A stretch of 64,000 nt of DNA from Escherichia coli (GTDB lineage: Bacteria > Pseudomonadota > Gammaproteobacteria > Enterobacterales > Enterobacteriaceae): assembly GCF_003334305.1 (NCBI RefSeq), contig NZ_QOWS01000019.1, one strand, 5' to 3'. The notes beneath the pieces are model-generated. The model ran no database searches, was not told the origin of the DNA, and saw only the letters and a list, made by a program, of their open reading frames with translations. Positions 2-10,088 of this stretch are shown piece by piece. A program made the translations under genes and the position numbers. Positions within the stretch are counted from its first letter, which is position 1. Each line of letters starts with the position of its first letter.

Positions 2-1546
2 CTGCAGACGGTCTTCGCCGCCAGAGCGGCGGAATCAGTTCAGCATTCGGTGCGCTTGCGCAGCTTCGGCCATATGCTGCGTCTTGGACTCCCCTGGCAT
101 GAAAAGCATGCCGATTCGCGTCTTACCCGCATGACCGTTGATGTGGACTCTCTCGCCCGCTTTCTGCAAAACGGCCTTGCCGGTGCGGCCACCAGTCTGG
201 TGACGATGTTCGCAATCGCCGCCACCATGTTCTGGCTCGACCCGTTCCTGGCGCTGACGGCATTAAGCGCAGTGCCAGTGGCCGCACTGGCAACCATGAT
301 TTATCGCCGCCTCAGTACCCCTGCTTATGCACAGGCACGGCTGGAAATAGGCAAAGTCAACAGCACCCTGCAGGAAAAAGTCTCTGGCCTGCGTGTCGTG
401 CAATCGCATGGTCAGCAGGAACTGGAGGGCGCCCGGCTGCGCGCGTTATCGGAGCGTTTCCGCGCAACCCGTGTGCGAGCACAAAAATACCTTGCAGTCT
501 ATTTTCCGTTCCTGACATTCTGCACCGAGGCCTCCTATGCCGCTGTTCTGTTAGTGGGAGCTTCGCAGGTCGCCGCTGGAGAAATGACTGCCGGGGTACT
601 GGCGGCTTTCTTCCTGTTGCTGGGGCAATTCTATGGGCCAGTGCAGCAGTTATCAGGGATTGTCGACGCCTGGCAGCAGGCGACAGCCAGCGGCAAACAT
701 ATTGATGAACTACTGGCGACAGAAGGCACTGAGAACCTCGGGTCCTCTTCGGTCCTCCCTGTCACCGGTGCACTGCATCTTGATGAGGTCACGTTCAGTT
801 ATCCCGACAGTCACGAGCCAGCTCTGAACAAACTTACCCTGACGATCCCAGAGGGAATGGTTGTCGCGGTCGTCGGTCGCAGCGGTGCGGGTAAGTCGAC
901 GCTGATTAAGCTGATTGCCGGGTTGTATTTCCCCACGCACGGCAACATCAGAATCGGTGTGCAAATGCTCGATGATGCCTCGCTCACTGAGTATCGTCGC
1001 CAGATTGGGCTTGTCGATCAGGATGTAGCACTGTTTAGTAGTGATATTGCAGAAAACATTCGTTATTCACGGCCATCCGCCACCAATGAAGACGTTGAAA
1101 TTGCCTCACAGCGGGCAGGGCTGTATGAGATGGTGTGCAATCTGCCGCAGGGATTCCGGACACCGGTGAATAACGGCGGAGCCGATCTGCCCGCAGGTCA
1201 GCGCCAGTTGATTGCGCTGGCCCGCGCGCAACTGGCGAATGCCCACATCCTGCTGCTCGACGAAGCCACGTCATGTCTGGATCGCACATCCGAAGAACGA
1301 CTGATGTCATCGTTAACAGATGTCGTGCATGCCGGGAAGCACTCGGCGCTGATTGTTGCACATCGTCTGACCACCGCGCAACGCTGCGATCTGATTGCCG
1401 TTATTGATAAGGGGTTACTTGCGGAATACGGAACCCACGAACAGCTGTTATCTGCGGGCGGCCTCTATACCCGCTTATGGCATGACAGCGTCAGCAGTAC
1501 TGCTCTCCATCGCCAGCACAACATGAAGGAGGAAACCCCGGGATAG
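2..1546 (+). CDS. iroC: Salmochelin/enterobactin ABC exporter IroC, C-terminal part (5' end lies outside the window)
   Basis: Open frame runs from the window edge with no upstream stop; translation shows a membrane domain followed by an ABC nucleotide-binding domain (Walker A GRSGAGKST, Walker B ILLLDEAT); sits immediately upstream of iroD-iroE with convergent iroN. Confidence 0.8.
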   Translation: MQTVFAARAAESVQHSVRLRSFGHMLRLGLPWHEKHADSRLTRMTVDVDSLARFLQNGLAGAATSLVTMFAIAATMFWLDPFLALTALSAVPVAALATMIYRRLSTPAYAQARLEIGKVNSTLQEKVSGLRVVQSHGQQELEGARLRALSERFRATRVRAQKYLAVYFPFLTFCTEASYAAVLLVGASQVAAGEMTAGVLAAFFLLLGQFYGPVQQLSGIVDAWQQATASGKHIDELLATEGTENLGSSSVLPVTGALHLDEVTFSYPDSHEPALNKLTLTIPEGMVVAVVGRSGAGKSTLIKLIAGLYFPTHGNIRIGVQMLDDASLTEYRRQIGLVDQDVALFSSDIAENIRYSRPSATNEDVEIASQRAGLYEMVCNLPQGFRTPVNNGGADLPAGQRQLIALARAQLANAHILLLDEATSCLDRTSEERLMSSLTDVVHAGKHSALIVAHRLTTAQRCDLIAVIDKGLLAEYGTHEQLLSAGGLYTRLWHDSVSSTALHRQHNMKEETPG

Positions 1547-1649
1547 TTACTGGACACGTAATGTATTAAAAACACAGTCAGAAGCGGCGGTACCGTGAAT
1601 AGCCGCTTTAATTATTTATACTGACATCCTTAATTTTTAAAGAGTATGA

Positions 1650-2879
1650 ATGCTGAACATGCAACAACATCTCTCTGCTATCGCCAGCCTGCGCAACCAA
1701 CTGGCAGCGGGCCACATTGCTAACCTTACTGACTTCTGGCGCGAAGCTGAGTCGCTGAATGTTCCTCTTGTGACGCCAGTCGAAGGAGCGGAAGATGAGC
1801 GAGAAGTGACCTTTCTGTGGCGCGCCCGACATCCTCTGCAGGGCGTTTATCTGCGTCTGAACCGGGTGACGGATAAAGAGCACGTAGAAAAAGGAATGAT
1901 GAGCGCCCTTCCCGAAACGGATATCTGGACACTGACACTGCGTTTACCCGCAAGTTACTGCGGCTCCTATTCGCTGCTGGAAATCCCCCCCGGCACTACG
2001 GCTGAGACGATTGCACTGTCCGGAGGCCGTTTTGCCACCCTTGCCGGAAAGGCCGATCCGCTAAACAAAATGCCGGAGATCAACGTTCGGGGAAACGCAA
2101 AGGAATCAGTGCTGACACTTGATAAAGCTCCCGCCCTGTCGGAATGGAACGGCGGCTTCCACACCGGACAACTGCTTACCTCCATGCGCATTATCGCCGG
2201 GAAATCTCGCCAGGTTCGGCTCTATATTCCGGATGTTGATATTTCTCAGCCCCTCGGGCTGGTCGTGCTGCCCGATGGTGAAACCTGGTTTGATCACCTT
2301 GGCGTATGCGCGGCAATTGACGCCGCCATAAATAATGGGCGCATCGTGCCCGTGGCTGTACTGGGCATTGACAACATTAATGAACATGAACGCACTGAGA
2401 TACTCGGCGGGCGCAGCAAACTGATAAAGGATATCGCCGGACATCTGCTGCCGATGATTCGCGCTGAACAACCGCAGCGTCAGTGGGCAGACCGTTCGCG
2501 CACAGTGCTGGCCGGGCAGAGCCTCGGCGGGATCAGTGCGCTAATGGGGGCTCGTTACGCACCGGAAACGTTCGGTCTGGTGCTCAGCCACTCTCCTTCA
2601 ATGTGGTGGACGCCAGAAAGAACCAGTCGACCAGGCTTGTTCAGCGAAACCGATACCTCATGGGTGAGTGAGCATCTGCTTTCTGCCCCACCGCAGGGCG
2701 TACGTATCAGCCTGTGCGTGGGATCGCTGGAAGGTTCGACAGTGCCTCACGTTCAGCAGCTTCACCAGCGGCTGATTACCGCTGGCGTCGAAAGCCATTG
2801 CGCAATCTACACCGGTGGTCACGATTACGCATGGTGGCGCGGTGCACTGATTGACGGGATTGGTTTACTACAGGGTTGA
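1650..2879 (+). CDS. iroD: Salmochelin esterase IroD (Fes-like enterochelin esterase)
   Basis: 409-aa ORF with esterase serine motif GQSLGG; position between iroC and iroE matches the iroBCDE operon. Confidence 0.85.
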   Translation: MLNMQQHLSAIASLRNQLAAGHIANLTDFWREAESLNVPLVTPVEGAEDEREVTFLWRARHPLQGVYLRLNRVTDKEHVEKGMMSALPETDIWTLTLRLPASYCGSYSLLEIPPGTTAETIALSGGRFATLAGKADPLNKMPEINVRGNAKESVLTLDKAPALSEWNGGFHTGQLLTSMRIIAGKSRQVRLYIPDVDISQPLGLVVLPDGETWFDHLGVCAAIDAAINNGRIVPVAVLGIDNINEHERTEILGGRSKLIKDIAGHLLPMIRAEQPQRQWADRSRTVLAGQSLGGISALMGARYAPETFGLVLSHSPSMWWTPERTSRPGLFSETDTSWVSEHLLSAPPQGVRISLCVGSLEGSTVPHVQQLHQRLITAGVESHCAIYTGGHDYAWWRGALIDGIGLLQG

Positions 2880-2963
2880 GTTGACCCACAAACACTTTCA
2901 GGAAACGGTACAGACTTCCTGAATAAATCAAATAGTCACCTGCGGAAAAGGAATAATCATCAG

Positions 2964-3920
2964 ATGTATGCCCGCGAGTATCGCTCAACACGCCCGCATA
3001 AAGCGATTTTCTTTCATCTTTCTTGCCTCACCCTTATCTGTAGTGCGCAAGTTTATGCGAAGCCGGATATGCGGCCACTGGGGCCGAATATAGCCGATAA
3101 AGGCTCCGTGTTTTACCATTTCAGCGTCACCTCTTTCGACTCTGTCGATGGCACACGCCATTATCGGGTATGGACGGCCGTGCCGAATACAACCGCACCG
3201 GCATCGGGTTACCCGATTTTATATATGCTTGACGGTAACGCAGTTATGGATCGCCTGGATGACGAACTGCTCAAACAATTGTCAGAAAAAACACCGCCAG
3301 TGATCGTGGCTGTCGGGTATCAGACCAACCTCCCTTTCGATCTCAACAGCAGGGCTTACGACTATACGCCAGCAGCAGAAAGCAGAAAAACAGATCTCCA
3401 CTCAGGGCGTTTTAGCCGTAAGAGTGGTGGCAGCAACAACTTCCGCCAGTTACTGGAAACGCGTATTGCCCCAAAAGTGGAACAGGGACTGAATATCGAT
3501 CGGCAACGCCGCGGCTTATGGGGGCACTCCTACGGCGGCCTCTTCGTGCTGGATTCCTGGCTGTCCTCCTCTTACTTCCGGTCGTACTACAGCGCCAGCC
3601 CGTCGTTGGGCAGAGGTTATGATGCTTTGCTAAGCCGCGTTACGGCGGTTGAGCCTCTGCAATTCTGCGCCAAACACCTGGCGATAATGGAAGGCTCGGC
3701 GACACAGGGTGATAACCGGGAAACGCATGCTGTCGGGGTGCTGTCGAAAATTCATACCACCCTCACTATACTGAAAGATAAAGGCGTCAATGCCGTATTT
3801 TGGGATTTCCCCAACCTAGGACACGGGCCGATGTTCAATGCCTCCTTTCGCCAGGCACTGTTAGATATCAGTGGTGAAAACGCAAATTACACAGCAGGTT
3901 GTCATGAGTTAAGCCACTAA
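2964..3920 (+). CDS. iroE: Periplasmic salmochelin esterase IroE
   Basis: 318-aa ORF with hydrophobic N-terminus and GHSYGG esterase motif; last gene of the iroBCDE operon. Confidence 0.8.
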   Translation: MYAREYRSTRPHKAIFFHLSCLTLICSAQVYAKPDMRPLGPNIADKGSVFYHFSVTSFDSVDGTRHYRVWTAVPNTTAPASGYPILYMLDGNAVMDRLDDELLKQLSEKTPPVIVAVGYQTNLPFDLNSRAYDYTPAAESRKTDLHSGRFSRKSGGSNNFRQLLETRIAPKVEQGLNIDRQRRGLWGHSYGGLFVLDSWLSSSYFRSYYSASPSLGRGYDALLSRVTAVEPLQFCAKHLAIMEGSATQGDNRETHAVGVLSKIHTTLTILKDKGVNAVFWDFPNLGHGPMFNASFRQALLDISGENANYTAGCHELSH

Positions 3921-3923
3921 ACA

Positions 3924-3945
3924 CTGCCCGCTTTTACGCGGGCAG
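3924..3945. terminator. Hairpin between convergent iroE and iroN (likely bidirectional terminator)
   Basis: Inverted repeat ctgcccgc-ttttac-gcgggcag lying between the stop codons of the two convergent genes. Confidence 0.5.
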
Positions 3946-3964
3946 TACGCCTGAAACACTACGA

Positions 3965-6142
3965 TCAGAATGATGCGGTAACTCCGGCATAGTAAGCCCG
4001 GCCTGGCTCGTTATAGGTATTCGCCCCTTCAGAAGATCGGAAGATCTGTTTATTGAGGATATTACTGACGCCGACATTAAGACGCAGATTTTTATTAATA
4101 TCGTAATTGAAGTTCGTCCCCACCAGTGAATAAGCGCCCAGCTCTTTACCTGACAGACCGCCAGTATCTTCACTGCGGGTTTCCGCATGAGTACGCGGTT
4201 TTTGTCTGCCATATAACGTCCAGTTGACGCTGGCAGAAAACGCCTGGGTGATGGTCCAGTTAAGCGAGTTATTGATAGTATATTTCGGGATGACCGACAG
4301 AGGATTACCGGTGTCTTTTTGCTCCGAAGTGATCATCCATGTGGCATTGGTATTCCAGTTCAGACGATCTTTCACCAGTGGGAAAGACATACTGGCTTCG
4401 ATACCGTCCACCAGAGCTTTCCCGCCATTCTGCCACTTGAGGATATATGCGCCTGAAGCGGTTTGCCCGATAACGTTATCCCCGGCCACGATCTTATTCT
4501 GGTAATCATTGCGGAAGTAGGTCACACTTGCGTGGTAATCTTCCCAGGTGAACTCCAGCCCAATTTCTTTATTGACGCTGATTTCCGGATCGAGATCTTT
4601 ATTACCGATCAGGTAGCACCCGCCTGATGTAATATCTTTTGGACAGCCATTGCCTTTCGAGTAGAGCAGATAGCCTTCACTGGATTGATACAGGTTTGGG
4701 GCTTTAAAGGTTCGGGCAACCCCTGCTTTGACTTTGAAATAATCGCCCAATTCCTGCGAAAGATTCAGACTGGGGCTGAAGTTCCCGCCGGAGTCGCTGA
4801 GATAATCAAAGCGCAGGCCGGGAATGATATTCGTGCCAGGAACCGGCTCAATGTTATCTTCAATATACAGCGCACTGATTTGAGAATGATTTTTACTGCT
4901 GCGATCCGCAGCAGAGCCAGAAATACCGCTGATATCACTGTCATTCACCGTCAGGCTGGTAGAGGAAGGATCATCGAGCTTATCGCGGTTCCACTCTGCA
5001 CCAACGGTCAGCGTTTGATCAACCATCACATTCAAAGGAATATTAAGCTCGCCGCTGGTTCGCCAGGAACTCAGGCGATTGGTCGTAAACTTTTCACCCG
5101 CTAAAATACGCCCTTCACCACCGCCGGATAATCCTTCATTCATGCGGGTATTATTGGTTTTCTCGTAATAAACACCAAAGCGACTTTGTCCCCAGTCCCA
5201 GATACCATTATGCGTAATGCCATAATTCTGTCGGTACAGGCGGTTCGTCTCTTTGCCGGATTTTGCCAGGCTTTCGGTAACTGCACTGGAAGAACTGTTT
5301 TGCGTATCGCCCGCATAGATATTCCCCTGGCGGCTATATCCGGCTTCGAAATCGAGAATCTGCTGCGGATTTAATTTCCACGAGACAACGCCGTTAATAT
5401 CTTTGTTACGTACCCCTTCATGCCCGGCTGCGTTTTTCGTACCGACCGGAGAATTAATATCCCAACTGTCAGCATCCGTTTTATTCAGGTTACCATACAA
5501 ACGCGTGGTAAGAGCATTACCAGCCAGAGGCCCACTAAGGCTGAAATTGGCGCGACGCGTAGCGCCCTCATCGCTACTTTCCGGCTGATTGGTGTATAAC
5601 GACAGCGAACCGTGCCAGTCGTTGGTGGGACGTTTGGTAATGATGTTCACCACCCCCCCGGCTGCCCCCGAACCGTAGCGCGCCGCCGCAGGGCCGCGGA
5701 TCACTTCAATACGCTCAACCTGTTCCGGTGGCACCCAGTTGGTGTCACCGCGGGTATCACGCTCTCCACGCCAGCTATAACGCACGGAGTTACGTGACGT
5801 CACCGGTACACCATCAATTAAAATTAAGGTGTTTTCCGGCCCCATACCACGAATATCGATCTGGCGGTTGTTACCGCGTGTGCCCGAGGCGCTATTGCCG
5901 GTAAGATTGACGCCAGGCATTTTACGAATAATATCTGAAAGGTCGTTTACCGGAGGGGTCTTTTTAATATCCTCGCTGGTAATAACCGACACGCCCGGCT
6001 GCTGTTTTAATACCTGCTCAGCGGTGGCTTCCACCACCAGAGTCTCGTCATTATCATCGTCGGAGGATTTGGCTACTGATACCTGGCTATTCAACCCAAC
6101 CAGGAGCACAGTTAGCGACCAGAGGATTTTGTTAATTCTCAT
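3965..6142 (-). CDS. iroN: TonB-dependent salmochelin outer-membrane receptor IroN
   Basis: 725-aa ORF with signal peptide, TonB-box-like N-terminus and C-terminal beta-barrel ending in an aromatic residue; convergent with iroBCDE as in known iro loci. Confidence 0.9.
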   Translation of the reverse strand: MRINKILWSLTVLLVGLNSQVSVAKSSDDDNDETLVVEATAEQVLKQQPGVSVITSEDIKKTPPVNDLSDIIRKMPGVNLTGNSASGTRGNNRQIDIRGMGPENTLILIDGVPVTSRNSVRYSWRGERDTRGDTNWVPPEQVERIEVIRGPAAARYGSGAAGGVVNIITKRPTNDWHGSLSLYTNQPESSDEGATRRANFSLSGPLAGNALTTRLYGNLNKTDADSWDINSPVGTKNAAGHEGVRNKDINGVVSWKLNPQQILDFEAGYSRQGNIYAGDTQNSSSSAVTESLAKSGKETNRLYRQNYGITHNGIWDWGQSRFGVYYEKTNNTRMNEGLSGGGEGRILAGEKFTTNRLSSWRTSGELNIPLNVMVDQTLTVGAEWNRDKLDDPSSTSLTVNDSDISGISGSAADRSSKNHSQISALYIEDNIEPVPGTNIIPGLRFDYLSDSGGNFSPSLNLSQELGDYFKVKAGVARTFKAPNLYQSSEGYLLYSKGNGCPKDITSGGCYLIGNKDLDPEISVNKEIGLEFTWEDYHASVTYFRNDYQNKIVAGDNVIGQTASGAYILKWQNGGKALVDGIEASMSFPLVKDRLNWNTNATWMITSEQKDTGNPLSVIPKYTINNSLNWTITQAFSASVNWTLYGRQKPRTHAETRSEDTGGLSGKELGAYSLVGTNFNYDINKNLRLNVGVSNILNKQIFRSSEGANTYNEPGRAYYAGVTASF

Positions 6143-6237
6143 ACCTATTCCCTAATAAATGCCTAACTTAAAATGTTTGATCGTTAAGCTCACATCCTTG
6201 CCAGATATTTTTTACTGCCATTATTGTTTTTATATAA

Positions 6238-6259
6238 GAATGATAATTAATATCATTTA
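6238..6259. promoter_or_regulatory. Candidate Fur box in the iroN promoter region
   Basis: Sequence tgataattaatatcattta, made of GATAAT-like hexamers, about 100 bp upstream of the iroN start; about six mismatches to the 19-bp Fur consensus. Confidence 0.4.
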
Positions 6260-6996
6260 GCAAAAAAAAAAGCAATCCCTCACAAGATAAATATATCGAT
6301 TTTTCATAAATATCAAATTGATATATAACATATGTTTTTTATTTCATTGCACTTGTCGATCATCGGGAATTTTGTCACAATTTCTCACGGATAGTGTTCA
6401 CATTGTTTCTGACCTGCATTTCAGGCGCGGGCGCTGCTTATGTATATAAGGGCCTGTGGTCGACGAATCAGCATAATCAGATCTTCCTGCGAGCAATTTC
6501 TTTCAGCGTATCAGGCAGCACTATCGGATTATCTACGTGCGTTTTTGATTCACATTGTGTGTGAAACTTCATACATCATGATTCGCTTTCCCTACTCAGT
6601 TCTGATGATTGTTTTTTATTCTATTAACACGGAGTTAAGATTCTACCCTCGGTGTCCTCATTATTAATGAGGAATGCTACCTATCTAAAAACTGACCGAA
6701 ACTTTGGGGCATCCCTGGAGGTTTCCAAGGAGAAAAAGGTGACAGTGATAGTGCCACATTGTGAGGAAATTCCTGAGAAACTCCTGGTTCACACACATAA
6801 TTCAGGAGTTTGCCATAGATAGTAACCAATTGTTTTATATTTTAAGACCATTAAATACGCGGCTACGATAGCGCTTTATATAATCATAAACTGTAGAGAT
6901 AAAATATCTGCTTCTCTGATAACACTAATTGAGTGTCTTAAACTAAGTAATTTCATTTTTCCCCCTTTAAAAGCAATATATGTGCAATAGTTGAAG

Positions 6997-8031
6997 TTAA
7001 AGCTGTGCTGCCAGAGTTGATAATAATTGTTCTGTCTGTTGCCATGATATGCATTCATCAGTAACAGACTGACCATACTCTAGCGGAAAACTATCGGATT
7101 GTTTTCCATCTTGTAAAAAGCTTTCCACCATAATGCCAGCTACATATCCTGGTATTTTTTTCCGATTATCTATAACTTGACGTGCAACGGAAATTTGCCG
7201 TTTAGCCACTTTACCGCTATTACCATGGCTACAATCAATTATCAGACGATGGTTAATACCCTCATCATGCATTAATTTCACTGCCTTAGTTATATCAGAC
7301 AAACCATAGTTAGGTTCTCTACCTCCACGTAATATTAGATGTCCATGTGGATTGCCATCGGTTAATAGTGTAGATATACTATTTGTTAAAGATGTCATAT
7401 ATACAATATGTTGTTCACGGGCTGCAATAATAGCGTCAATAGCTAAGTTAATATTTCCATCAGTACTGTTTTTAAATCCAACTGGACAATGTAAACCAGA
7501 CGCAAGTTGACGATGCGTTTGTGATTCAGTGGTTCTGGCACCAATAGCACCCCAACATATTAAATCAGCAATATAGGGAGTAAGAAAAGGATCGAGGAAT
7601 TCTGTAGCGGTTGCGACACGCATCGTTGTGATTGAAGCCAAACACTGGCGAGCATATCGTATCCCTTTCTCAACATCATAACTTCCATTTAGATCAGGAT
7701 CGTGCATTATTCCCTTCCAGCCTTTACGGGTTCGAGGTTTCTCAAAATAAGTGCGCATTACAATGTACATTTTCGATAAGTACTTATTCTGTAATACGAA
7801 CAATCGCTTCGCATAATCAACTGCGGCCTGAACGTCATGGATTGAGCATGGACCAACAATCACAAGTAAGCGAGGATCTTTTCCCAGCAAAATATTCGCT
7901 ATAATATCTCGTTGCAGAGAGATCCATGTTACGGTTTCTTCCGATACTGCGATTTCTTTATGAATCTCGCCCACAGTGGGTAAACTGCCAAGCAACTTCC
8001 CGCGGTAGATTAATTTACTAGCTGACTGCAT
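6997..8031 (-). CDS. Class I 3-deoxy-7-phosphoheptulonate (DAHP) synthase, AroF/AroG/AroH family
   Basis: 344-aa ORF aligning by eye along its length with E. coli AroG (IVGPCSIHD, YFEKPRT..GWKG, WGAIGARTTESQ.HR.LASGL, GFKN.TDG, ILRGG.EPNY); AGGAGA ribosome-binding site 4 nt before the ATG. Confidence 0.85.
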   Translation of the reverse strand: MQSASKLIYRGKLLGSLPTVGEIHKEIAVSEETVTWISLQRDIIANILLGKDPRLLVIVGPCSIHDVQAAVDYAKRLFVLQNKYLSKMYIVMRTYFEKPRTRKGWKGIMHDPDLNGSYDVEKGIRYARQCLASITTMRVATATEFLDPFLTPYIADLICWGAIGARTTESQTHRQLASGLHCPVGFKNSTDGNINLAIDAIIAAREQHIVYMTSLTNSISTLLTDGNPHGHLILRGGREPNYGLSDITKAVKLMHDEGINHRLIIDCSHGNSGKVAKRQISVARQVIDNRKKIPGYVAGIMVESFLQDGKQSDSFPLEYGQSVTDECISWQQTEQLLSTLAAQL

Positions 8032-8080
8032 CTTGTCTCCTAAAAGCGCTATTTCAGACCATCAGTTGCACACAGTAGAT

Positions 8081-8099
8081 GATAATGATAATCATTTAC
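8081..8099. promoter_or_regulatory. Fur box upstream of the DAHP synthase gene
   Basis: gataatgataatcatttac matches the Fur consensus GATAATGATAATCATTATC at 17 of 19 positions; about 50 bp upstream of the start codon at 8031. Confidence 0.6.
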
Positions 8100-8244
8100 T
8101 GTATAATTGGCAATATATGGGGATTCATAGTCATTTCTGAGATAATATACGTTAGGCCTTCTCTCCCGTACGGAAATCACTTGTTTTCCGTAAATTACCT
8201 GAATCTTAATCCCTGAGCTGCGGCTAGCTGTGGAACTCACAAAA

Positions 8245-8590
8245 GCTGACCGGGCCGTGGCACAGCCTCTCTGCTGGCAGAACAGCGTACTGCAGAAGTC
8301 GTCGTACTGCCGCTGGTCCCGGCATCAGGTCTGCCCGCAGATGGCACTTCTGCCACTGATCTGCCGGTGGAGCTGAACGGCATGACATATCAGGCCTGCC
8401 GTGGGGATTTTGTGGTGCGCCTCGACGGCAGCACCTGTCTGCAGTTATAGAATAAAGAAGGCGGGGAGGTACGCAGGGAGGGCGATCCGCTGGAAGTGGC
8501 GTAGTGGCTGTAGGCCTGTAATGATGCAGGAATAGAAGTTCGTGTACAGGTTAATGAAAGCATCACCCCGTAAAAACATGCCGGCACGGT
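8245..8590 (+). pseudogene. Pseudogene: 3' portion of the 196-aa backbone gene at 16644-17234, interrupted by stop codons
   Basis: Homologous to 16890-17234 but with CAG-to-TAG and TGG-to-TAG changes and a 20-bp deletion. Confidence 0.6.
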
Positions 8591-8899
8591 TTACACATCA
8601 TTCCATGGTGGCAGCCGGTTAACTTTCCTGCGCCACCAGTGGAAAGAGGCCATGAGCAGTCCGAACAAAAAACCACTCGTGATACTTATAATAATGGCCT
8701 CACCTGCTACCATTCCTGACGGCCCCCAGTACATAAACCACATTGCACATCCCCAGGAAATACCCCATAAGCCCCCCATCAGCAGCGTAACCTGCCAGAA
8801 CGGCATAAAGGGCAATGGCGGAAGCCGGATACCCAGCCGCCAGAGAATACGCAGCAGAGGAGGAGCATAATTACTCCGCCACATCTTTTTGCTGTCCAT
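8591..8899 (-). CDS. Small membrane protein of unknown function (longer paralogue of 17254-17472)
   Basis: 102-aa ORF with two hydrophobic segments; N- and C-termini nearly identical to the 73-aa paralogue but with about 30 extra internal residues. Confidence 0.45.
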   Translation of the reverse strand: MDSKKMWRSNYAPPLLRILWRLGIRLPPLPFMPFWQVTLLMGGLWGISWGCAMWFMYWGPSGMVAGEAIIISITSGFLFGLLMASFHWWRRKVNRLPPWNDV

Positions 8900-8997
8900 C
8901 AGGGCAATTGCCCGGGCTTTTTTTGCTCAAAAGTCACAGGAGCACCTCCGTTCCATGATGTAAACGTGACACAACTTATTGTTATTGATTATTATTA

Positions 8998-9440
8998 TCA
9001 TACCGTGATTATGTTGTCATGCACCTGTACACTGATAAAAGAAAGGGAGAACAGGAGGCTGGCTGAACAACCAATCCGTTCGTCCAGTTCAATGGCGGCT
9101 ATCAGGTTCTGCTCCGCAATGTACTCACGAATGCGCTTCCTGTCCTGGCTGGCCAGCATGGTCCAGAATATCTCCATCATTTACCGGCGACTTTCCTGCT
9201 CATTTCATCCCGCCATGCAGCAGCGGAAGATTCGACCATGTCATGGGGAAGCACATCGCCGCGCTCGAGTTGCTGACGTCCTGCCTCAACCTGGTCACGG
9301 AACCAGGTATTATGCTGCCGTTCCACGGTCTGGCGCATAAAATCCCGGATTAACTGAGAGCCATTACGGTCCATGCTTTTTGCAGGGCCATAAAAGCATC
9401 CTTCAGTTCAGCGTCAATTCTTAAACTCATATTAACCTGT
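8998..9440 (-). pseudogene. Remnant toxin-antitoxin module: truncated ParE/RelE-like toxin and frameshifted RHH antitoxin
   Basis: Toxin frame matches the first ~38 residues of the intact 93-aa toxin at 20957-21238 then diverges at the deletion join; the antitoxin frame lacks one base (gcagggccat versus gcagcggccat in the intact copy). Confidence 0.6.
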
Positions 9441-9509
9441 GCCATTTATCACCCCGTCATTACCACGTATATACACAGTATATAACGATTCAGATATCGT
9501 CACTAGGAT

Positions 9510-9600
9510 ATGCCGCGCCAGCGGCATGGAAGGCGGCACTCCGCTGTTTCATATGATACCGCCGAAGCCCGATGTAAGCCGCTACAGTCGTCCGAAAGTC
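9510..9600 (+). repeat. Conserved hairpin module, copy 1 of 3 (candidate single-strand initiation site)
   Basis: atgccgcgccagcggcatggaaggc ... catatga ... gccgaagccc; the same module recurs at 21569 and 57311. Confidence 0.5.
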
Positions 9601-9735: not shown

Positions 9736-9754
9736 GATAATGATTACCATTCTC
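9736..9754. promoter_or_regulatory. Fur-box-like sequence upstream of cvaA
   Basis: gataatgattaccattctc, about 16 of 19 matches to the Fur consensus; it lies ~300 bp upstream of cvaA, so the link to that promoter is uncertain. Confidence 0.3.
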
Positions 9755-10088
9755 TTTTAATATACAGAGAAACTAGGAAATAGATGAATGAGTTATGTTA
9801 CTTTAATATTCTCTGACAATAACCTAAATCAGTTAGATTATTGTCATTTAATAAATAATGACATTCTTTCATCATAAATAAAAAGACTATTGTTTATAAT
9901 ATTGTTCTCAGCATTATATGATTATTTATCCTGATAACTCTCCTATGCTGTATGTTTATATGATTTTCCTTGAAACATATAATGCAAATTTTCGATTTAT
10001 TTTCCATCATTAATCCAGATAAACAACAAACTAATAGTATGCAAGGAGACATTATTTGTTTCGCCAGGATGCTTTAGAAAACAGAAAA

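Follow-up and report, generated by a model that had tools for sequence, protein, structure and literature searches.

SsbL of a ColV-type Escherichia coli plasmid: a DAHP synthase gene preceded by a Fur box, and its relatives in siderophore loci

INTRODUCTION

The closest described counterpart of the gene studied here is ORF 123 of pS88, a plasmid of the meningitis strain S88 (Lemaitre et al. 2012, PMC3438092). No other pS88 gene was induced as strongly: its expression rose more than 100-fold in human serum, in urine and in iron-depleted LB. A Fur-box-like sequence precedes it, and its product is 45–50% identical to the three DAHP synthases of K-12 (PMC3438092). The same study found ORF 123 to be restricted to genomes that carry iro, pointed to chromosomal homologues in CFT073 (c1220) and 536 (ECP_0281), and proposed that the gene raises the supply of chorismate for enterobactin and salmochelin (PMC3438092). 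The name ssbL was given in 2014, and, as two later articles relate, the gene boosts catecholate and phenolate siderophores as well as virulence (Lemaitre 2014, J Bacteriol 196:1343, pmid 24443535, via PMC6918656 and PMC4723317). The chromosomal copy c1220 belongs to the direct Fur regulon; its expression rises in urinary tract infection, and it adds to fitness when infection is systemic (Banerjee et al. 2020, PMC7157518).

The inhibitor site of the housekeeping enzymes is covered by a review of DAHP synthase engineering. Two conserved residues, AroG Gln151 (AroF Gln152) and AroG Ser180 (AroF Ser181), touch the main chain of the bound inhibitor, and inhibition is relieved by S180F, P150L, D146N, L175D, L179A, F209A/S or V221A in AroG and by P148L or Q152I in AroF (PMC9529685). 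In the literature that we searched, neither the allostery of SsbL nor the amino acid that might inhibit it is addressed, and we found there no paper on a wider clade of DAHP synthases in catecholate clusters with Fur boxes. The principle of an extra, pathway-dedicated DAHP synthase feeding a chorismate-derived secondary metabolite is the same in PhzC of the phenazine clusters; unlike SsbL, which is of class I-alpha, PhzC is a class II enzyme; it is not known to be under Fur control, and the two lack homology at the level of the family.

RESULTS AND DISCUSSION

The DAHP synthase gene upstream of iroN is ssbL

The window, by which we mean the whole stretch of 64 000 nucleotides that was analysed, is from a ColV-type IncF plasmid near-identical to pCS0010A of Salmonella Kentucky and to many avian E. 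coli plasmids. Its features around ssbL are as follows:

6997-8031, minus strand: ssbL coding sequence, class I-alpha DAHP synthase (3-deoxy-7-phosphoheptulonate synthase), from profile matches, catalytic residues and identity with pS88 SsbL
8037-8041, minus strand: Shine-Dalgarno AGGAG, 5 nt before the ATG, by direct reading of the sequence
8081-8099, no strand assigned: Fur box, 17/19 consensus match, from a consensus scan with shuffles; its core is kept in the alleles and similar sites occur in relatives
8085-8113, minus strand: predicted sigma-70-like promoter, -35 TTGCCA (8113-8108), 17-nt spacer, -10 TATCAT (8090-8085), a consensus match only
6886-8193, minus strand: 1.3-kb ssbL cassette, in which the promoter and the gene are followed by some 110 nt of 3′ sequence, from blastn against the ATCC 25922 locus (L005) and a survey of E. 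coli genomes

The original prediction, that a full-length class I DAHP synthase lies between iroN and the colicin V genes, is borne out by the ORF, the profile scores and the gene order. Starting from the first ATG after a stop codon, the minus-strand ORF encodes 344 amino acids, and it is placed between iroN (3965-6142, minus) and cvaA (10056 onward, plus); iroC′DEN, at 50-6142, is immediately downstream, so that ssbL is linked to the iro (salmochelin) locus. The product matches Pfam DAHP_synth_1 (PF00793) with an E-value of 9e-76 and scores 420 bits, for a cut-off of 173, with the NCBIfam equivalog TIGR00034 (aroFGH), which makes it a member of class I-alpha. Its fold is beyond doubt, since it is 43–49% identical to solved DAHP synthases. 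All the catalytic and metal-binding residues are kept (AroG numbering): the metal ligands Cys61, His268, Glu302 and Asp326, and the PEP-binding residues Arg92, Lys97, Arg165, Lys186 and Arg234; the same nine are conserved in each of the 24 aligned sequences.

Identity with the published gene is nearly complete. The protein differs from pS88 SsbL (WP_001190234.1; ORF 123 of pS88/pECOS88) at one position out of 344, S132A, and the nucleotide sequence is identical over 200 of 200 upstream positions, Fur box included, and over 1306 of 1308 across the cassette. The site is also the same, upstream of iroN and beside the cva genes; what distinguishes the window from pS88, apart from S132A, is a plasmid backbone matching ColV plasmids of Salmonella Kentucky and APEC, pCS0010A being an example. 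Codon 132 specifies Ala in the window and Ser in the chromosomal allele, in pS88 and in pCS0010A; it is away from both the catalytic and the pocket residues.

A Fur box overlaps the promoter and travels with the gene

Comparison of 8081-8099 with the Fur consensus GATAATGATWATCATTATC reveals two mismatches, i.e. the very 17/19 count previously claimed for this promoter, where shuffling gives an expectation of 0. Over the whole 64-kb window, six matches with at most three mismatches were found, for 0 expected from 100 shuffles. The box overlaps the spacer and the -10 hexamer of the predicted promoter, which is the usual layout of a Fur-repressed promoter. A small correction applies to the end coordinate formerly given, 8110, which leaves the -35 hexamer (8113-8108) just outside. 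Neither a TyrR box nor a trp operator was found in the ssbL promoter when searched with the consensus sequences.

We considered whether the box might serve a divergent gene and rejected this, there being no credible plus-strand gene start upstream; the next gene, which encodes a DUF6404 protein (8591-8899), is on the same strand as ssbL and outside the conserved cassette. On the other side, iroN has overlapping Fur-like sites of its own (15/19 and 14/19, at 6236-6260, about 95–115 nt upstream of its start at 6142) and therefore, though on the same strand, need not rely on read-through from ssbL.

Among 5426 complete E. coli genomes, 626 contain ssbL. It is found at 454 plasmid places, nearly all with an identity of at least 99%, and at 188 chromosomal places with an identity of about 90%. 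The chromosomal allele, of the type of c1220 (CFT073) and ECP_0281 (536), was compared through ATCC 25922 and not through CFT073 itself. Its protein is 93% identical to that of the window and it comes as the same cassette, with an identical Fur-box core; it differs in being chromosomal, in the microcin H47 / iro pathogenicity island, in its flanking IS fragments and in about 10% DNA divergence. The two cassettes are 89.6% identical, and nothing beyond the cassette is common to both locations. When the upstream regions of the plasmid and chromosomal alleles are aligned, over 176 nt of the window and with columns 86% identical on average, neither the Fur-box core TAAATGATTATCATTATCA nor the -10 hexamer differs. 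The promoter, being part of the cassette and keeping these two elements, therefore travels with ssbL and is under constraint.

In ATCC 25922 (coordinates of locus L005), the allele is located at 8159-9193 and surrounded by IS fragments. The microcin genes are at 12227-17283: mchI/mchB, for microcin H47, at a distance of about 3 kb, and mchE/mchF, of which ssbL is upstream, at about 6 kb. On the plasmid, cvaA/cvaB are 2 kb from ssbL and have about 95% DNA identity to mchE/mchF. Thus, with mchE/mchF near the chromosomal copy and cvaA/cvaB near the plasmid one, ssbL adjoins a microcin exporter in both settings.

Sampled relatives of SsbL in other genera are encoded beside siderophore-type genes

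Outside E. coli, the nearest relatives, at 70% identity, are from Citrobacter amalonaticus and Morganellaceae; next, at 49–55%, come those of numerous Vibrio species and of further marine gammaproteobacteria. All seven non-E. coli contexts that we read adjoin siderophore-type genes, and the proportion is eight out of nine sampled loci when the two E. coli alleles are counted. The Citrobacter locus has NRPS genes, an iron-siderophore ABC importer and a TonB-dependent receptor, the Morganellaceae locus NRPS genes and a receptor, that of V. coralliilyticus a receptor, an MFS transporter and NRPS genes, and that of Psychromonas NRPS genes and ABC exporters; the Shimwellia relative is beside an isochorismate synthase gene. 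In V. vulnificus and V. fluvialis the gene is part of a complete catechol cluster, with isochorismate synthase, DHB-AMP ligase, isochorismatase, DHB dehydrogenase and NRPS.

A Fur-like site scoring 14–17 out of 19 ends 30–54 nt before the start codon in eight of the nine loci (again counting both E. coli alleles); it was looked for and found absent in the case of the Shimwellia relative, and the Citrobacter and Morganellaceae sites score only 14/19, a value reached by 12–21 of 500 shuffles. As controls we used five housekeeping genes, K-12 aroF, aroG and aroH and the aroH genes of Providencia and Xenorhabdus, the latter two retaining the ppsA-ppsR-aroH synteny. Their best scores are 11–12 out of 19, within shuffle expectation, and aroH itself is not preceded by a Fur-like box. 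Beyond their aroH, Providencia and Xenorhabdus have directly a TonB-dependent receptor gene and a HemS/ChuX haem-utilisation cluster, and K-12 has ydiE; adjacency of aroH to haem or iron genes may be recurrent.

The enzymes of the V. vulnificus and V. fluvialis clusters resemble SsbL: they belong to the clade with Pro at the position of AroG Gln151 (the Pro151 clade, see below) and a Fur-like box is found 47–54 nt upstream of their genes, which adjoin those for isochorismate synthase, DHB-AMP ligase, isochorismatase and NRPS. They differ from it by being 356 amino acids long, about 50% identical, and encoded inside a biosynthetic cluster, whereas ssbL of E. coli stands alone as a cassette, with genes for transport and modification nearby. 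This siderophore-linked, Fur-preceded Pro151 clade, which we describe from computation only, appears to be new.

Iron control and siderophore supply

The explanation that we hold, with high confidence, to be the best is the published one: SsbL is a DAHP synthase repressed by Fur and derepressed by iron starvation, which raises chorismate for siderophores. We found no direct contradiction of it. In detail, ssbL encodes an accessory, fourth DAHP synthase of E. coli. Under iron-replete conditions, Fe2+-Fur is expected, from the position of the operator (8081-8099), to block RNA polymerase at the -10 and spacer; iron starvation leads to strong derepression, as reported in the literature. The enzyme probably condenses PEP and erythrose-4-phosphate into DAHP, judging from its conserved catalytic residues and from the published siderophore phenotype. 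The increased chorismate flux would benefit 2,3-dihydroxybenzoate and salicylate, the units from which enterobactin, salmochelin and yersiniabactin are built; the effect on siderophore output has been shown in the literature. Finally, the gene travels together with its promoter as one self-contained cassette of 1.3 kb, and the loci that harbour it contain iro or microcin genes as well. Chorismate reportedly restored an ssbL mutant, of which the virulence is said to have fallen in neonatal rats.

Every part of the earlier reading is supported, and each is already published, the gene being the known ssbL. That the isozyme is iron-derepressed agrees with the more than 100-fold induction in iron-poor media (PMC3438092) and with c1220 being a direct Fur target (PMC7157518). 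Its anticipated role, an extra isozyme feeding siderophore precursors, is the siderophore boosting by ssbL that is mentioned in PMC6918656 and PMC4723317. The published point is that a virulence plasmid carries a metabolic booster together with its siderophore system, and that precursor supply keeps up with demand in infection.

DAHP synthases being metalloenzymes, one could also think of an iron-sparing replacement: SsbL would use another metal, e.g. Mn2+, when the Fe2+-dependent housekeeping enzymes fail, and serve general aromatic upkeep. Fur control would fit here too, as it follows the pattern of Fur-derepressed isozymes. However, Cys61, His268, Glu302 and Asp326 are identical to those of AroF, AroG and AroH and, since these are the four metal ligands, the sequence gives no hint of a change of metal. 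Moreover, the presence of the clade in siderophore clusters of several genera points to precursor supply rather than to general upkeep, and the published phenotypes, as described in PMC6918656 and PMC4723317, concern siderophore yield. We regard this replacement as unlikely.

Another possibility, to which we give slightly less credit still, is that ssbL mainly serves the catechol-microcin and colicin V export islands, by providing DHB-serine for microcin modification, with the iro link being secondary. It would account for the proximity of the chromosomal copy to mchI/mchB and mchE/mchF and of the plasmid copy to cvaA/cvaB. But colicin V is not known to carry a siderophore moiety, and ssbL was reported solely from iro-carrying genomes (PMC3438092). 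Because the biochemistry would be the same, namely more chorismate, such a role would shift the selective context slightly and leave the mechanism as it is.

SsbL is distinct from AroF, AroG and AroH

SsbL is 49%, 43% and 44% identical to AroH, AroG and AroF of K-12, respectively, and shares their fold family and catalytic residues. Its best NCBIfam subfamily is AroH (NF009396), with 442 bits, below the curated cut-off of 463; the score is also under the curated cut-off for AroG. The sequence departs from the AroH subfamily by Q151P, S180H and G150T (Thr is thus found at the position of AroG Pro150) and by absence of the N-terminal D-E, and ssbL does not adjoin ppsA/ppsR as true aroH orthologues do. 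That ssbL is simply aroH was consequently ruled out, on the sub-cut-off score, the missing synteny and the different inhibitor site. With respect to all three housekeeping enzymes, the differences are Gln151 to Pro, Ser180 to His, Phe209 to Val and Ser211 to Met, the absence of the acidic N-terminal residues, and a promoter with a Fur box in place of a TyrR or TrpR operator. A passive, Trp-sensitive AroH paralogue with a fortuitous AT-rich Fur match, for which the AroH score and the 49% identity could be invoked, is refuted and deserves practically no credence, given the departures just listed, a box that beats every shuffle and is conserved across alleles and genera, the published induction (PMC3438092) and the ChIP data (PMC7157518).

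The inhibitor site in the Pro151 clade

Residues were surveyed in the 120 best database matches together with SsbL and the K-12 reference sequences. In a neighbour-joining tree, the 36 full-length sequences with Pro151, including SsbL, constitute one monophyletic group. None of these 36 has Ser180, the residue found there being P, H, D, R, Y, T, A, N or L; in the housekeeping group of the surveyed set, Ser180 is present in all sequences and Gln151 in all but one. The catalytic residues are invariant across both groups. With a list of 18 pocket positions drawn partly from the AroG–Phe structure, the pocket of the Pro151 clade is more variable than the protein average (1.94 vs 1.33 bits), an excess matched by only 52 of 5000 random position sets, while that of the housekeeping group, which differs from the clade in divergence, is more conserved than average (0.32 vs 0.60 bits).

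As the Gln and Ser that anchor the inhibitor are lost in all 36 members, SsbL probably escapes feedback by aromatic amino acids. Whether the whole Pro151 clade has lost the canonical feedback, its former pocket now drifting, is in our judgement about evenly poised. Since Pro151 is invariant, the site may have been remodelled rather than be dead; it is less likely that a remodelled pocket senses a different ligand. We give the same even weight, from sequence comparison, to the broader proposal of a fourth class I-alpha subfamily, not described to date, which would unite SsbL with its relatives and would be controlled by Fur, encoded in loci for aryl-capped siderophores in Enterobacterales and Vibrionaceae, and naturally insensitive to Phe, Tyr and Trp.

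SsbL would probably escape, on these sequence grounds, both the TyrR/TrpR repression and the Phe/Tyr/Trp feedback that throttle AroF, AroG and AroH in amino-acid-rich host fluids. If so, its insensitivity would explain the benefit of a fourth isozyme in serum and urine, which are rich in amino acids and where the other three are repressed and inhibited, and natural feedback resistance would complete the explanation of the fitness gain in host fluids. Metabolic engineers would also gain a class I-alpha DAHP synthase that resists feedback by nature, and a siderophore-dedicated enzyme subfamily would be useful for the annotation of gene clusters.

Other features of the window

The colicin V operons are bracketed by two direct copies, 85–95% identical, of a segment of about 1.4 kb, one at 8218-9585 and the other at 16857-17615 and 21110-21655. 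This segment carries the above-mentioned DUF6404 gene (8591-8899, minus) and a toxin-antitoxin pair of the RelE/ParE, yacA/yacB type (8998-9374, minus). Some 3.5 kb of inserted DNA (17616-21109) interrupts the second copy, encoding a 626-aa coiled-coil protein with a weak SMC-like match only (17997-19877, minus) and a 282-aa 3′-5′ exonuclease of the DnaQ/DEDDh type (20063-20911, minus); an exonuclease fragment is also present in the chromosomal ssbL island. Between these two genes, at 19988-20006, there is a Fur-box-like site matching the consensus at 17 of 19 positions. Two further 17/19 matches are found at 9736-9754, about 300 nt upstream of cvaA (start at 10056), and at 14163-14181, about 50 nt upstream of the start of cvi (around 14114, minus); both fit the known control by iron of the production and export of colicin V.
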